DNA of 40,594 nt from a bacterium. GTDB taxonomy: Bacteria > Krumholzibacteriota > Krumholzibacteriia > LZORAL124-64-63. Where the stretch lies: contig JANOEP010000053.1 of NCBI GenBank assembly GCA_031441465.1, forward strand, positions 1 through 40,594, written 5' to 3'. The notes below the pieces were generated by a model. It had not been told where the DNA came from. It worked only from the letters and a program-made list of their open reading frames with translations, and made no database searches. A program made the translations under genes and the position numbers. Positions 27,515 to 30,655 of the stretch are shown piece after piece. The first letter of the stretch is position 1. Every line of letters begins with the position of its first letter.

Positions 27515-27940
27515 ATGGCCAAGTCGTTCAAGGTCACCATCACCACCGCCGAGCAGCAGCTGCTCGAGACGGACTCCGTGTCGCTGACCCTGCCGGGCAT
27601 CGCAGGCTACCTGGGCATCTGGGCCAACCACGCGCCCCTGGTGACCGCGTTGGTGCCGGGCGTGATGACGCTGCGCCACGACGACTCGGACGCCGTAGGC
27701 TCGGTGAGCCACTTCGCGGTGAGCAACGGGTTCGTCGAGGTGGCGGACAATCGGGTGTCGGTGATGGTCGACAGCTGCGAGCCGGCCGGCCAGATCGACG
27801 TGACGCGGGCCGAGGCGGCGCTGGAGCGGGCGAAGAAGCTGCTGACGGAGCCAGCCAACGCCAAGGTCGATCTGGCGCGGGCGGAGGCGGCGATGGAGAG
27901 GGCGAAGGCGCGGCTGGTGGCGGCGAAAAAGGGCCGGTAG
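27515..27940 (+). CDS. atpC: ATP synthase F1 subunit epsilon
   Basis: GYLGIWANHAPLVTAL, VSNGFVEV, C-terminal helical hairpin. Confidence 0.96.
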   Translation: MAKSFKVTITTAEQQLLETDSVSLTLPGIAGYLGIWANHAPLVTALVPGVMTLRHDDSDAVGSVSHFAVSNGFVEVADNRVSVMVDSCEPAGQIDVTRAEAALERAKKLLTEPANAKVDLARAEAAMERAKARLVAAKKGR

Positions 27941-27960: not shown

Positions 27961-28000
27961 ATCAAGTCAAGGGCCCCCGCTAGTGGGGGCCCTTGTTGAT
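27961..28000 (+). terminator. Stem-loop terminator of atp operon and target site of the group IIC intron
   Basis: CAAGGGCCCCC-GCTAGT-GGGGGCCCTTG (27968-27995), extended by ATCAA/TTGAT; weak U-tract. Confidence 0.85.
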
Positions 28001-28002
28001 CG

Positions 28003-28634
28003 GTGAGCCCGGCATGGGCGTCGACCTGGAGGTGGAAGTCCTCCCCCGAGCAGGCCACAGCGAGGGAAGTGAAGCGCAAGGGCGGAAGGGCGACCGACCG
28101 TCTGGAGGAAGCGTGGCGCGTAATCCACGGACCGACGAACAGAAACCGGATACGAGGCGACGCGAACCGGGGCGAGCGAGCCGATGATCGCGAAGCTCCC
28201 GTGGCCAAAGGGATGCGGCGTAAATCCGGCGGTCGTGTGGAGAAGGCCGGCGTTCTTACCCGGGGAGATCTCGCCTCACACCTGAAAGGGTGACGCGGCG
28301 CAAAGCGCGGAGCGAGAAGTCAGCAGAGGCCATAGTAGACAGCGCTACTGTCGAAGGGCCGAAGGAATAGGAGGGCGCGCCCTCTGGTCCTCGGACTCGG
28401 AATGTCTCAGATGTTCGCTTCTGCGAAGCTCGCCGAAACGGCAGATAGGGTGAAGCCCGAATGGTCCCGGCAGCGAGAAACCGAGTTGGGCGGATCAGAA
28501 ACAAGCAACCCCAGGCGACGTGTGGGATTCACCCGAACACGCCGACCTCAACTGTTCCAACCGCCCGGTGCGGACCCGCATGCCGGGTGGTGTGGGAGGG
28601 GACGCCGGGGTAAACTCGGCGCCCCTATCCAGAT
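28003..28634 (+). mobile_element. Class IIC group II intron lacking a reverse transcriptase ORF (~632 nt)
   Basis: 5' end GTGAGCCCGGCATGGGCG; conserved CTTACCCGGGGAGATCT and GAGAAGTCAGCAGAGGCCATAGTAG...GAAGGGCCGAA blocks; short DV ACCGCCCGGTGCGGACCCGCATGCCGGGTGGT with CGC triad (~28560-28591); DVI GGGAGGGG...CCCCTATCC with bulged A and 3' end AGAT; sits just after a terminator hairpin. Confidence 0.9.
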
Positions 28635-28664
28635 TGGGGCATAGGTTCTCATCCGCAGCCAGGC

Positions 28665-29858
28665 TCAAGTTGCGACCTCGGTAGAATCCTCTTCAGCCTC
28701 CGGAGGCGGCGCCAGCGGCAGAAAGTGGTTGAATACGGACATGATGATGAACGGGATGATCAGGATCACCAGTGCCATCACGATGCCCTCACGTCCCAGC
28801 AGCTCCGGCGTGTAGCTTTCGCGGAATCCGATCCCGCTCTTGGAAAAGATCTGCCCCCCGATTACCACGTTCCACCGCATGGAAAAGACCTGGATCAGCA
28901 GGATGATCGCAGCGATGAAGGCGATCACGTGCCGCAGTGTGTCGGTCAGGTACTTCCGCATCAGGACGACGATCCCCAGCAGGATGAACGGTATCAGCGA
29001 GCCGAAGATCATCTGGATCCCGATGAAGGAGAAGGCGATCTTGTCGGTGATCAGGGGCTTGACGATGAGCCACTCCTCGTTCTGCGCGTAGGAAAGGGTG
29101 ATGATCTCCAGCAGTTCGAGGGTGACGGTCATGGTGGCGAACAGCCACAGCCACTGGGCCAGGGACTGGACGCAGACGCCGTCGATGCGGCGGCCAGAGA
29201 ACTTGGTGAGGGCCTCGTAGAGGACCAGGATCATGGCGATCCCCGAGGTGACGGCCGAGAACAGGAAGATGATCGGCATCAGCGGCGTGGACCAGAAGGC
29301 GTTGGCCTTGACCGAGCCGAACATGAACCCGACATAGCCGTGAAGGATGCAGGCCGCGGGGATGCCCAGGGCCGCCAGGACGACGATCACCCGCTTGTCG
29401 TTCCTGCGCGCCTCGGGCGACACGTCGTAGACCCCGAGGGCGACGAGGGAGAAAAACCGCCGTTTGAAGCCACGGCTGTGGGCCGCCAGCTCGATGATCT
29501 CCACCCGGAAGATCAGCCAGATTTCGACCAGGACCAGGATCAGGTAGATCCCGTAGATCAGCCCGAACGCCGACATGGCGGAGGTGAAGTGGGGCGTGAT
29601 CATGATGTTCATGGCCCGCTCGGGATGACCGAGGTGCGCCAGCAGGGGCGTGGTGGCGACGGCCAGGAAGGCTAGCGAGGCGACCATCGACAGCCGGGCC
29701 ACGGGGCGCAGCTCCCCATGACCGAACACGTGGTACAGCGAGGAGACGATGAACGCTCCGGCCACCAGACCCGTGATGTAGGGGTAGAGCACGATCATCA
29801 GACTCCACATCACGTGGACGTCGTTGGGGAACAGGTAGTTCATGGCCTGCTCGTGCAT
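28665..29858 (-). CDS. NrfD/PsrC-family integral membrane quinol-interacting subunit
   Basis: True start ATG 29858 (TGATG overlap); WSLMIVLYPYITGLVAG, HLGHPER, SAMSAFG, LHGYVGFMFG, MRWNVVIGGQ; about 8-10 TM segments. Confidence 0.9.
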   Translation of the reverse strand: MHEQAMNYLFPNDVHVMWSLMIVLYPYITGLVAGAFIVSSLYHVFGHGELRPVARLSMVASLAFLAVATTPLLAHLGHPERAMNIMITPHFTSAMSAFGLIYGIYLILVLVEIWLIFRVEIIELAAHSRGFKRRFFSLVALGVYDVSPEARRNDKRVIVVLAALGIPAACILHGYVGFMFGSVKANAFWSTPLMPIIFLFSAVTSGIAMILVLYEALTKFSGRRIDGVCVQSLAQWLWLFATMTVTLELLEIITLSYAQNEEWLIVKPLITDKIAFSFIGIQMIFGSLIPFILLGIVVLMRKYLTDTLRHVIAFIAAIILLIQVFSMRWNVVIGGQIFSKSGIGFRESYTPELLGREGIVMALVILIIPFIIMSVFNHFLPLAPPPEAEEDSTEVAT

Positions 29859-30655
29859 CAGCGCACCTCCCCGGAATGGCCGAGGTAGTAGCATTTCGGC
29901 TCGGTGTGGAGTTCGGGCTTGAGCAGGTGGACCTCGCTGGTGGCGATGATCTGTGCGACCTCGTCGCCCAGCGTCTTGGCGTCCCCGAGCTTGCGGGCCC
30001 CGGTGGGGCAGTTCTGGACGCAGGCCGTCTTCAGGCCCTTGGTCAGCCGGTGGTAGCAGAGCGAGCACTTGCTGGCGGTGTGCGTCTCGGGGTGGATGAA
30101 GCGCGATCCGTAGGGGCAGGCCTGCACGCAGTAGCTGCAGCCGATGCAGCGCTCGCTGTCGACGAGCACCAGACCCTCGGGGCTGATGTACGAGGCGCCG
30201 ACGGGACACAGCTGCACGCAGGGCGAGTTGGTGCAGTGGTTGCACAACTTCGGCACGAAGAAGGCCTTGGTGACGTCCGCGCCCATCACCTGCGGCTCGA
30301 AGCCGTCGCGGCCGCCGTTGGGCGAGTCGATGAACGACTCGCCGGAGCGGGAGATGTGGTAGCGCTCGATCCAGGTCCGGAAGAAGTGCTTCGGCACCCG
30401 GTTCTCCAGCTCGCAGGCCCGCACGCACGATCCGCAACCGATGCACTTCTCGATGTCCACCAGGTAGATATAGCGGTGCTTGGTGGGATCGTATTCGAAC
30501 TCGCCGAAGGCGCGGCCCAGCCCCCGCGTGACGGTGTTGGCCGAGACTAGGGCCAGGCCGCCGCCGGCCATGACCACGGCCATGCCGCCGGCGCCCACGG
30601 CGGCGATTTCCAGGAACTGGCGTCGGGTGAGATCCCGTTTCTTCATCTGGCTCAT
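29858..30655 (-). CDS. Tat-exported 4x[4Fe-4S] protein, NrfC/PsrB/DmsB family
   Basis: TRRQFL Tat motif; CIGCGSCVRAC, CNHC...CVQLCP, CIGCSYCVQACP, CSLC...CVQNCP. Confidence 0.93.
   Translation of the reverse strand: MSQMKKRDLTRRQFLEIAAVGAGGMAVVMAGGGLALVSANTVTRGLGRAFGEFEYDPTKHRYIYLVDIEKCIGCGSCVRACELENRVPKHFFRTWIERYHISRSGESFIDSPNGGRDGFEPQVMGADVTKAFFVPKLCNHCTNSPCVQLCPVGASYISPEGLVLVDSERCIGCSYCVQACPYGSRFIHPETHTASKCSLCYHRLTKGLKTACVQNCPTGARKLGDAKTLGDEVAQIIATSEVHLLKPELHTEPKCYYLGHSGEVR

Follow-up and report, generated by a model that had tools for sequence, protein, structure and literature searches.

The window, by which we mean the whole stretch of 40,594 nucleotides that was analysed, contains an ATP synthase operon in which atpA, atpG, and atpD lie upstream of the last gene, atpC (27515 to 27940, plus strand, with the stop at 27940). 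This gene encodes the epsilon subunit (Pfam ATP-synt_DE_N, E 9e-21; ATP-synt_DE, E 3e-9) and provides the 5' exon context of the element described here. It is followed by a convergent gene for an NrfD-family membrane protein (28665 to 30446, minus strand; Pfam NrfD, E 3e-36), and the 724-nt gap between the two gene ends holds a group II intron. The 632-nt element that the earlier note had located here was indeed found at 28003 to 28634 of the plus strand, running from GTGAG to GAT (GUGAG to GAU in the RNA), and Rfam matches together with the alignment of sister copies delimit it as a complete ORF-less intron with the features of class IIC. It is inserted in the sense orientation, directly behind the atp operon.

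All the domains expected of such an intron could be placed on the plus strand. Domain I (DI) occupies 28008 to 28264 and is closed by the pairing of 28008-28012 with 28260-28264, as given by RNAalifold on 10 relatives and by the model RF02001. Within it, the EBS1 hairpin (28176 to 28191) carries the EBS1 sequence CGAT in its loop at 28182-28185, and this loop varies between copies and fits the 5' exon of each. Domains II and III, with J2/3, cover 28265 to 28360 (DII region 28265-28321, DIII 28328-28360), as defined by RF01998 and the consensus fold. Domain IV (DIV) takes up about 195 nt from 28364 to 28558, close to the 190 nt first estimated, and is followed by domain V (DV, 28561 to 28590), which the fold and the RF00029 alignment resolve as a short domain of 30 nt with the catalytic triad CGC at its positions 2-4, a 2-nt bulge, and a 3-bp distal helix. 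Domain VI (DVI, 28593 to 28631; fold and RF00029 alignment) is well paired and has a bulged A at 28627, the putative branch point, 8 nt from the 3' end of the intron, which closes with GAU. Both DV and DVI are thus as had been proposed from the sequence. Comparison with the Rfam models, which the earlier note had recommended, supports a six-domain group II architecture. RF02001 (group-II-D1D4-3) matched with 111.8 bits, model positions 1-170 aligning at 28084-28255 (gathering threshold 32), and RF01998 (group-II-D1D4-1) with 47.3 bits at 28296-28359 (gathering threshold 35), but RF00029, the model for DV and DVI, reached only 38.4 bits at 28559-28634 (E 7e-6), which is 1.6 bits below its gathering threshold of 40. 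The sister copy in the same genome (on contig C16) likewise scores below this cut-off, and the reverse transcriptase (RT)-bearing copy on contig C49 is absent from the matches at E<=1. The possibility that DI to DIII would prove unfoldable, raised in the earlier note as grounds for rejecting the element, is not borne out: the consensus fold of the 10 relatives has 100 pairs, 48 of them with compensatory change, and standard pairs are formed at 98 of the 100 in the atpC-linked copy, at 99 in the C16 copy, and at 92-100 in full-length relatives. The intron is confirmed as structurally complete in this model of its fold, and without DIV the predicted ribozyme would measure about 437 nt.

The intron is preceded by a GC-rich, terminator-like hairpin, the target motif of class IIC introns, with its core at 27971 to 27992 (plus strand; from the sequence and RNAfold). 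RNAfold lengthens this hairpin to 27968-27995 through A-U and G-U pairs and gives the 55-nt 5' flank before the intron a free energy of -27.6 kcal/mol. The spacing of 7 nt first reported between the core stem of the terminator and the intron is correct when measured from the extended stem, but amounts to 10 nt from the core. A simple terminator scan made no call here, the T tail of the hairpin, TTGTTGATCG, being interrupted. The poor T tail counts against the identity of the hairpin as a terminator. The final four nucleotides of the 5' exon, ATCG (IBS1, 27999 to 28002, plus strand), form a perfect 4-bp match with EBS1 at 28182-28185, and this pairing covaries across the family described below. 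The first base of the 3' exon, T at 28635, is presumed from its position to be IBS3. Among the relatives from the host's taxonomic class for which a 5' flank is available, a hairpin precedes the intron in 17 of 17. Hallmarks of class IIC are a short DV with a CGC catalytic triad and an IBS1-EBS1 pairing of only 3-4 bp, and introns of this class self-splice, in vitro mostly by hydrolysis. Hairpin targeting, this type of DV, and the GsI-IIC-like RT of the ORF-bearing relatives together support the assignment of the atpC-linked intron to class IIC, as read from sequence features, and uphold the class originally proposed.

The atpC-linked copy (C53) is not alone. A search of the source genome for sister copies, suggested in the earlier note, returned a second ORF-less copy of 632 nt at C16:28729-29360, starting 5 nt behind a hairpin and identical to the atpC copy at 485 of 629 aligned bases (77%), but the only RT-bearing intron, on C49, was no close parent, being 61% identical in DI-DIII. 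In metagenome data, contigs L098 and L130 carry one and the same 632-nt copy that is identical to the atpC copy at 586 of 632 positions (92.7%), follows another hairpin, and differs in its EBS1 loop. Given that so similar a copy occupies another site with a retargeted EBS1 loop, the lineage must have moved after the deletion that removed its RT gene. These two contigs were the only introns retrieved by an 18-mer scan of metagenomes, which gave 83 matches; the other 78 of the 80 loci fetched were chance matches. The atpC copy differs from this closest copy at 11 positions among the 258 that are paired, at 21 among the 180 unpaired, and at 14 among the 194 of DIV. The lower rate at paired (4.3%) than at unpaired (11.7%) positions may be a weak signal of selection since the two copies separated.

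A motif taken from DIV, CTCAGATGTTC-N8-GAAGCTCGCC (21 bases), revealed a mini-intron family far larger than had first been guessed. It occurs at 88 places in 47 further species genomes, namely 35 assemblies of Betaproteobacteria, 8 of Gammaproteobacteria, 2 of other Pseudomonadota, 1 of Chlorobiota, and 1 of Thermodesulfobacteriota, with up to 8 loci per assembly, so that the family spans at least 48 species genomes and at least three named phyla plus the lineage of the source genome. Eighty of these loci were fetched, and in 78 of them a DV/DVI match follows about 110-140 nt downstream of the motif. They yielded 54 complete ORF-less introns (42 distinct sequences) measuring 563-685 nt, with no full-length or ORF-bearing intron among the recovered motif loci. 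In the database records examined, the introns of the family are unannotated.

The family copies are inserted at the terminators of many unrelated genes. A hairpin lies within 12 nt upstream in 47 of the 51 copies whose flank measures 45 nt or more, three of the others being arranged in tandem, head to tail, and one being marginal, and the hairpin flanks have a median free energy of -21.3 as against -9.5 for shuffled flanks. In 42 of 52 copies, a pairing of 3 bp or more joins the EBS1 loop to the end of the exon, and run length averages 3.71, compared with 3.07 +/- 0.14 in 1000 shuffles, of which the highest reached 3.63. The same deletion is shared by C53, C16, L098/L130, and the 54 complete copies, which sit at different sites with matching EBS and IBS sequences. 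The 5' part of DIV contains blocks that are specific to the mini-introns (CAGATGTTC, GAAGCTCGCC, and GGGTGAAGCCCGA).

DIV is where an RT/maturase would be encoded in an autonomous intron. The genome's sole RVT_1 match lies elsewhere, on contig C49, and no Rfam family matches within 28364-28558. Since DIV contains neither an RT/maturase nor a conserved reading frame, the 632-nt intron is not classed as autonomous, and its description as ORF-less stands. The domain is closed by a basal helix (28364-28370 with 28552-28558) and its fold further comprises a hairpin at 28414-28427, a helix joining 28428-28434 to 28469-28477, and the hairpin GGGUGAAGCCC at 28448-28458. Its homology with the stretch that encodes the RT N-terminus in full-length relatives identifies it as a structured, non-coding remnant of an RT gene: the relic start-codon region (28408-28416), an RGEA-motif region, and the relic stop region (28543-28552) all align with full-length relatives (all on the plus strand). 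Over 42 family members the DIV fold has 55 pairs, which are 94.8% paired, versus 84.0% in shuffles and 33-43% after sliding; the first of these percentages is inflated because the structure was predicted from the same alignment in which the pairs were counted. Two-sided changes were found at 32 of the 55 pairs (298 cells), which was reached by none of 500 shuffles. The core helices of DIV are also present within the N-terminal coding region of full-length relatives, where the hairpins recur with compensatory changes (GGGG-UGAAG-CCCC and GCGG-UGAAG-CCGC versus GGG-UGAAG-CCC in the family). As judged from these alignments, DIV is a conserved structured RNA, neither decaying nor a coding ORF, and its sequence comes from the beginning of the RT gene together with the few bases that preceded the stop codon.

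The position of the intron, in sense directly behind a highly expressed operon, and the degree of conservation of DIV, which exceeds what a relic would need, could also be read as signs of domestication, with the intron serving the host as an RNA at the 3' end of the atp transcript (a stabiliser, a processing site, or a read-through insulator) or with DIV carrying a small protein, for which an 80-aa frame opening at 28402 would be the candidate. We find this hardly credible. The small protein was rejected on the basis of the 42 copies, in which a stop cuts the frame from the conserved ATG short of codon 30 in 7 cases and short of codon 60 in 17, and in which the landmarks downstream of this ATG are spread over all three frames (13, 19, and 10 copies). 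A function tied to the atp transcript is at odds both with the presence of family copies behind so many unrelated genes and with the same-genus genomes, where atpC is followed by unrelated DNA and no intron in four of six, the contigs of the other two stopping inside atpC. The empty allele that the earlier note had hoped to see in relatives was not found in these genomes: given that their homology is lost at the atpC stop, an orthologous empty site cannot be aligned. Genome G004 has a similar hairpin, followed by T7, without an intron.

It could likewise be supposed that the two copies in the source genome are a private, local deletion derivative of a resident full-length intron, without a wider family. 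Several observations would agree with this. In DI-DIII, the nearest relative of each ORF-less copy of the host's taxonomic class is an ORF-bearing intron from another genome (C16 with G003, 90%; C53 with G131:C6, 88%; G163:C38 with G147, 85%), the ORF-less copies do not form one clade (AU p 4e-5, in a tree without the relic G131:C20 and without G047:C76), and a search for the DIV remnant among 208 genomes of the host's taxonomic class gave a match in the source genome only. Nonetheless, we regard this explanation as very unlikely, given that the DIV blocks and helices of both copies are common to the 47 assemblies of other phyla, and that DIV is closer to that of the proteobacterial copies (79-81% identity for C53, 78% for C16) than to that of the full-length introns of the host's class (47-56%). 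The pattern in DI-DIII is better accounted for by recombination or co-evolution between the mini-introns and full-length introns than by the same deletion arising several times. With a DIV identity of 61% between them, C53 and C16 belong to different sub-lineages of the wide family. This replaces an interpretation considered at one stage, in which the two copies shared a private DIV and had a mosaic DI-DIII produced by recombination. The DV-DVI regions of the two copies are nearly identical.

That the mini-intron probably borrows the RT of its full-length relatives is suggested by the occurrence of copies of the same design behind terminators in dozens of bacterial species. The only RT of the source genome is encoded at C49:75416-76852, within a IIC intron, the start of whose DIV is without the family helices. 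Identity between this RT and the cognate type is 50%. Among solved structures, this RT matches the GsI-IIC RT best (E 9e-145), followed by chain 7uim, a group II intron RT/maturase of 427 aa (E 2e-105) that we take to be the Eubacterium rectale IIC maturase, and its match to LtrA has an E of 5e-39. Given that the structure match covers residues 58-469 of 478, there is no room for an extra (endonuclease) domain. A cognate RT was not found in the source assembly, which is 96.8% complete in 74 contigs, so that an unassembled repeat could be missing from it. Ten other mini-bearing genomes were examined: six have an RT whose identity to the cognate type is 55% or more, two have only distant RTs (33-43% identity), and two have no RT at E<=1e-10, one of these being a complete genome. 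In a Zoogloea MAG, a terminator is followed by an array of two mini-introns and a full-length intron, and the latter is identical to the adjacent mini-intron at 332 of 360 positions of DI-DIII.

The atpC copy may now be stranded, given that the assembly of its host holds only a distantly related IIC RT. This leads to the question of whether it is a dead relic, an old arrival that lost its helper RT, became immobile, and looks intact only because decay is slow. The lack of a cognate RT in the source assembly and in four of the ten other genomes would agree with such a fate, as would the two copies in the genome, which at 77% identity form no near-identical pair and, belonging to different sub-lineages, show no sign of recent movement within it. 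Decayed relatives do occur in the host's taxonomic class (G036:C89, 426 nt; G131:C20, 400 nt). The spliced or empty-site joint of 28002 to 28635 was seen in none of the contigs from three DNA runs and one RNA run, which would also suit a relic, but this carries no weight because the data are assembled contigs. In DNA runs X1 and X2 the locus is occupied, with both intron-exon junctions present, and the contigs of the RNA run X15 contain relatives only, with 8-13 mismatches. Thirteen short internal joints turned out to be those of introns of other organisms (side under 40, likeness 90). Against a relic stand the 98 standard pairs of DI-DIII, the intact splice-site motifs, DV triad, branch-point A, and 4-bp EBS1-IBS1 pairing, the retargeted 92.7% identical copy, and the scarcity of substitutions at paired positions. 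The earlier note would have accepted a single decayed copy that does not splice, in a genome without an RT, as a mere relic, and what was found is a second 632-nt copy, an RT-bearing IIC intron, and an intact fold. We consider a dead relic possible, though on balance rather improbable, and it concerns only the present activity of this copy, being compatible with the existence of the family.

The reading that we prefer, with a rough probability of 0.8, is that the element is an intact member of a widespread, non-autonomous lineage of class IIC mini-introns, about 625-655 nt in length, that is mobilised in trans. Its ancestor would have dropped nearly the whole RT/maturase gene through one internal deletion in DIV, which spared roughly 150 nt at the gene's beginning and the last few bases ahead of the stop codon, and this remnant would now be kept as a multi-helix RNA that no longer codes. 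The mini-intron would be transcribed by read-through beyond the terminator hairpin, and a related full-length IIC intron would supply the RT, which would bind the mini-intron, with DIV as a DIVa-like docking site, and aid its splicing. The resulting RNP would then reverse-splice behind another terminator hairpin, chosen by the hairpin itself and by 3-6 bp of EBS1-IBS1 pairing, and the RT would copy the intron to DNA. A more far-reaching version, to which we would give even odds when its parts are taken jointly, is that an ancient single deletion gave rise to IIC mini-introns that parasitise full-length IIC introns across several phyla by means of a portable DIV docking module, with parts of the ribozyme swapped with those of the helpers, tandem arrays, and persistence after loss of the helper.

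If mobilised in trans, this would be, as far as the literature search showed, the first long-lived non-autonomous group II intron of class IIC. It would offer a natural model of how introns that give up their own protein become reliant on a splicing and mobility factor shared with others. Reliance of this kind has been invoked as a stage in the origin of spliceosomal introns. The mini-intron would also provide a compact natural IIC ribozyme with a defined protein-binding module, of use for structural work and for RT-based tools. As repeats, the unannotated mini-introns cause breaks in assemblies, and from their location at operon 3' ends they could influence both termination and the ends of transcripts. 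Should the mini-introns prove to be parasites, the textbook view of bacterial ORF-less group II introns as rare, local, and short-lived would be contradicted.

When compared with known systems, the mini-introns resemble the class C (IIC) introns B.h.I1, O.i.I1, A.v.I2, and GsI-IIC in their compact ribozyme, short DV with the CGC triad, and bulged A in DVI, as well as in their sense insertion a few bases behind a terminator hairpin with a short IBS1-EBS1 pairing. The start of DV in the A.v.I2 primer printed in PMC4748821, AACCGCCCGGTG, is the same as in the atpC-linked intron. The RT of the ORF-bearing relatives lacks an endonuclease domain and has the GsI-IIC RT as its best solved match, as is the case for IIC introns. 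Unlike the known IIC introns, the mini-introns have no RT gene, their DIV of about 195 nt is a conserved structured RNA, and the family includes head-to-tail arrays, among them the one formed by two mini-introns and a full-length intron.

The absence of an RT is shared with other ORF-less introns, such as B.c.I7 of Bacillus cereus E33L (PMC2504315). ORF-less group II introns of bacteria are described as rare and short-lived, nearly always found beside a close ORF-bearing relative and not persisting, and the presence of similar copies has been taken to imply mobility in trans (PMC4424553, PMC3245105). In contrast with those reported, the mini-introns represent one deletion lineage in which DIV identity has dropped to about 61-80% with the fold preserved. 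Among the 13,041 introns of a 2022 census, 888 were IEP-less, and the accessible part of that source describes no families of them (PMC8919778). The movement of ORF-less introns in trans is of a known kind, and no description of a IIC ORF-less family was found in the literature searched, the coverage of which did not extend to Simon et al. 2008, the ORF-less page of the intron database, or the supplements of PMC8919778.

The closest counterpart is found in the ORF-less TeI3 introns of Thermosynechococcus elongatus, which, according to the accessible portion of Mohr et al. 2010 (PMC2882425), arose by a single deletion, kept DIVa, and are moved by 'driver' RTs, the supply of RT in trans by full-length introns of the same genome having been shown experimentally. 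Like these, as far as that portion goes, the mini-introns bear one internal ORF deletion that leaves N- and C-terminal remnants, and occupy many sites with good EBS/IBS pairing. The TeI3 introns are IIB-like (CL), are confined to one cyanobacterial species, and use sequence-defined sites, whereas the mini-introns are of class IIC, use terminator hairpins, and are found in at least 48 species genomes, including some without a cognate RT. A further likeness, by analogy only, is to non-autonomous retroelements of the SINE/LINE type, which are short RNAs that have retained an autonomous partner's recognition module and exploit the RT of that partner; unlike those elements, the mini-intron passenger would itself be a ribozyme that carries out the chemistry of integration.

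The window element lies behind the atp operon, the last gene of which, atpC, ends at 27940 (Pfam). A GC-rich hairpin (27971-27992) stands 3' of atpC, and the 632-nt mini-intron starts 10 bases past the hairpin core, running on the forward strand from 28003 (GTGAG) to 28634 (GAT), while a convergent NrfD-family gene (Pfam) ends at 28665. RF02001 (group-II-D1D4-3) matched over its entire model at 28084-28255 (111.8 bits) and RF01998 (D1D4-1) at 28296-28359 (47.3 bits), both above the gathering score. The RF00029 (DV/DVI) match at 28559-28634 (38.4 bits, E 7e-6) slightly missed the gathering score of 40. In the scan of the whole source genome, the RF00029 score of a sister copy on contig C16 was also below threshold and the RT-bearing copy on contig C49 was unlisted at E<=1, so that the shortfall looks like a property of the short-DV lineage. 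Folding places DIV at 28364-28558 (about 195 nt), DV at 28561-28590 (30 nt; CGC triad, 2-nt bulge, distal helix of 3 bp) and the bulged A of DVI at 28627, 8 nt before the 3' end; the short DV with its triad and the bulged A had both been claimed from the sequence, and both are present in the fold. The upstream hairpin is strong (dG -27.6 kcal/mol in a 55-nt context), and a simple terminator scan made no call at 27971-27992 because its T tail (TTGTTGATCG) is interrupted. On the RNA tests the element reads as class IIC and, by definition, it does not come out as an autonomous intron.

A BLAST search of the 74 contigs of the source genome for sister copies returned a second mini-intron at C16:28729-29360, likewise of exactly 632 nt, 5 nt past another hairpin and identical to the window copy in 485 of 629 aligned bases. 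A full-length IIC intron of 1886 nt lies at C49:75039-76924 (locus L011), 8 nt past a third hairpin, with an intact ORF of 478 aa that contains YADD. This RT is the sole RVT_1 match in the genome, and also the sole tblastn match for either RT tested. Its best matches among solved structures are the GsI-IIC RT (E 9e-145) and 7uim (E 2e-105), an RT/maturase of a group II intron, the Eubacterium rectale IIC holoenzyme; weaker matches are LtrA (E 5e-39) and 6me0 (E 2e-37), a 562-aa 'maturase reverse transcriptase', the T. elongatus IIB protein. The C49 RT is thus a class C protein. With DI-DIII only 61% identical to the mini-intron, and an RT 50% identical to the cognate type encoded by full-length IIC relatives close to the minis, the C49 intron is not close kin of the mini-introns. 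No cognate RT was found by tblastn in this assembly, and the window copy may be stranded. The genome holds a third DV/DVI-like match at C16:11581-11648 (L009; RF00029, 38.3 bits), with an AGC-type DV of 34 nt that places it in a different intron class; its neighbourhood gave no D1-D4 match and no RT, and it apparently lies between two direct repeats of about 55 nt (...TCTGATTTAGCGC...GATCGTAAC...).

Relatives at E<=1e-10 occur in 24 of the 208 same-class species genomes, a full-length example being the 1847-nt intron with a 451-aa ORF on G003:C60. A strong hairpin lies 3-11 nt upstream in all 17 class copies that have 5' flank. The consensus fold of DI-DIII from 10 aligned sequences has 100 pairs, and compensatory changes occur in 48; standard pairs number 98 in the window copy, 99 in the C16 copy, 92-100 in full-length copies and 73 in the distant C49 intron. 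Between the window and C16 copies, 17 pairs have changed on both sides and six on one side while still pairing, and three are broken in one copy. A further ORF-less copy of about 623 nt, on G163:C38 (L082/L055; 1-590) in another genus of the same family, is cut by the contig start, which removes its first 33 nt; its DIV resembles the full-length type (GGGGTGAAGCCCC), so that it likely arose by a deletion of its own or belongs to a distinct lineage of minis. Two relics with internal deletions, of 426 nt (L033, G036:C89:135-560) and 400 nt (L095, G131:C20, locus 1501-1900), retain the 5' end, bits or the tail of the RT gene and DV/DVI, with most of DI-DIII gone, and are probably dead fragments.

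Alignment with full-length relatives shows that DIV of the minis retains, besides the leader and the start-codon region (CAGATG), roughly the opening 150 nt of the RT gene, the RGEA-encoding part among them. These are followed by the last bases about the former stop codon (GACCTCAAC) and, of the DIV basal helix, the 3' strand. The mini is thus a deletion derivative. The earlier note had placed about 190 nt without an RT here, and indeed the ancestral RT frame is interrupted, in the window copy by a TAG, and the only RVT_1 match of the genome is elsewhere, on C49. DIV as a gene was rejected, given that the frame opening at the conserved ATG is not maintained among 42 copies: a stop occurs before codon 30 in 7 of them and before codon 60 in 17, and the landmark GACCTCAAC falls in frame 0, 1 and 2 relative to the ATG in 10, 13 and 19 copies, respectively. 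RNAalifold, applied to 42 aligned members (the 3 shortest of 45 distinct sequences being omitted), predicted 55 pairs in 11 helices. In this structure, which derives from the alignment used for counting and thereby favours pairing, 94.8% of the cells are paired, versus 84.0% in shuffled alignments and 33-43% with partners slid. Two-sided changes affect 32 pairs (298 cells), a number reached in none of 500 shuffles and five times that of any slid control. By these counts, DIV is a conserved RNA. Its core hairpins recur with compensatory changes within the coding region of full-length relatives, which points to an RNA element that predates the deletion. This element is a putative RT binding site, to judge from the DIVa known in other group II introns (PMC2882425).

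The family to which the window copy had been suggested to belong does exist, as one deletion lineage in 48 species genomes. A scan of 185,579 species genomes with the pattern CTCAGATGTTC-N8-GAAGCTCGCC, common to both minis of the source genome, gave 88 places, and the 80 loci fetched are spread over 47 assemblies (35 Betaproteobacteria, 8 Gammaproteobacteria, 2 other Pseudomonadota, 1 Chlorobaculum and 1 Desulfurivibrio), with up to 8 mini loci per assembly. By nhmmer profile, DV/DVI lies about 110-140 nt past the motif in 78 of these loci and DI-DIII upstream in 63, many of the others being cut by contig ends. The 54 complete introns extracted (563-685 nt, 42 distinct sequences) contain no ORF, and one MAG carries the same 624-nt design at six different terminators.

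Among metagenome contigs, an 18-mer of DIV gave 83 matches, and the 80 loci fetched held only two introns, L098 and L130. These are the same copy, identical to one another in 632/632 positions and to the window copy in 586/632, and stand behind a hairpin and a gene other than those of the window, with an EBS1 loop (pairing with IBS1 at the end of the 5' exon) of GCATCGAA, versus GCCGATGA in the window copy, that matches their own exon end. A different site with a loop fitted to it shows that the ORF-less form moved after the deletion. The two records share an identical 5' flank and mini and have unrelated 3' flanks, reflecting either several identical copies in one organism with assembly jumps or rearrangement at the intron.

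Three plasmid records cover at least 80% of the query. One of them, the conjugative plasmid pRheCIAT894c of the alphaproteobacterium Rhizobium sp. CIAT894 (L280, locus 1501-2129), carries a complete 629-nt ORF-less copy with all three Rfam matches, unannotated in the PLSDB gene table, and is a possible vehicle for spread between hosts. The E. coli plasmid NZ_CP122941.1 (L279, locus 1501-1953) has a shorter relative of about 453 nt, 76% identical in two pieces, which matches RF02001 and RF01998 and has no RF00029 match at E<=0.001, and may therefore be truncated or DIV-less. On these phage-plasmids its neighbours are a phage holin/lysis cluster on one side and a serine acetyltransferase gene on the other; it has no annotation in the PLSDB table, and about 70 Escherichia plasmid records carry it.

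Across the family, 51 copies have 45 nt of flank or more; a hairpin lies within 12 nt upstream in 47 of these, three stand head to tail after another copy and one is marginal. In 42 of 52 scored copies (5 of 57 were unscorable), the EBS1 loop and the final bases of the exon form a pairing of 3 bp or longer, and the mean run is 3.71 versus 3.07 +/- 0.14 (maximum 3.63) for exons shuffled among copies. Head-to-tail mini arrays were seen at L192/L193, L228/L229 and L239/L240. In a Zoogloea MAG (L270, C4:50553-53701), one terminator is followed by two minis and a full-length intron of 1841 nt, whose DI-DIII is identical to the adjoining mini in 332 of 360 positions. In such arrays, each following copy apparently uses the DVI of the one before it as its hairpin. 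When ten mini-bearing genomes were surveyed for helpers with the G003 RT as query, six had an RT with 55% identity or more to that query (three intact full-length frames, one apparently frameshifted and two fragments at contig ends), two had distant RTs only (33-43% identity) and two, one of them a complete genome, had no RT at E<=1e-10.

Compared with proteobacterial copies, DIV identity is 79-81% for the window copy and 78% for the C16 copy, and the two share only 61% with one another, so that they represent separate sub-lineages, two in number, within the family. Each is closest in DI-DIII to the ORF-bearing intron of another class genome, and a single clade of ORF-less copies is rejected (AU p 4e-5) by a tree built without the G131:C20 relic and G047:C76. 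This pattern may mean that minis and helpers have exchanged ribozyme parts or have co-evolved. Two full-length introns, G003:C60 and G131:C6 (L013, L083), share 91% identity over the 5' portion of the RT gene and only 78% in DI-DIII, so that mosaic evolution is not confined to minis. DV-DVI of the window (28559-28634), C16 (29285-29360) and L098 copies are mutually 98.7-100% identical, versus 86-89% to other members, and the remainder of the C16 copy is only 61-80% identical to the other two; this could result from gene conversion, from a template switch as reverse transcription begins, or from adaptation to a local RT.

Four of six same-genus genomes have no intron after atpC, and the contigs of the other two end earlier, so that the insertion is neither old at this locus nor a conserved host feature. 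In DNA-run contigs the window intron junctions are occupied, and the RNA run contains only relatives of the window intron. At window 28002, metatranscriptome contigs of related introns (run X15, 8-13 mismatches) start at the first base of the intron; their loose ends carry another hairpin, which identifies them as unspliced precursors or DNA carry-over from relatives in another organism. The ORF-less IIC intron of the window is confirmed as an observation, and its interpretation is supported in its core, with transcription, splicing and mobility putative.

No description of such a IIC ORF-less family was found in the literature searched, outside the reach of which lay the main survey (Simon et al. 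2008). Trans-mobilised group II introns without an ORF are known from bacteria, among them T. elongatus TeI3 (PMC2882425) and B.c.I7 (PMC2504315), and ORF-less introns are stated to be rare and to accompany close ORF-bearing relatives (PMC4424553; PMC3245105). A census counts 888 IEP-less among 13,041 introns (PMC8919778), and ORF-less introns are also reported in phages (PMC12350094). In contrast with the known ORF-less introns, the mini family is of class IIC and terminator-targeting, constitutes one deletion lineage across 48 species genomes of several phyla, has a conserved structured DIV, forms tandem arrays and occurs also in genomes without a cognate RT.
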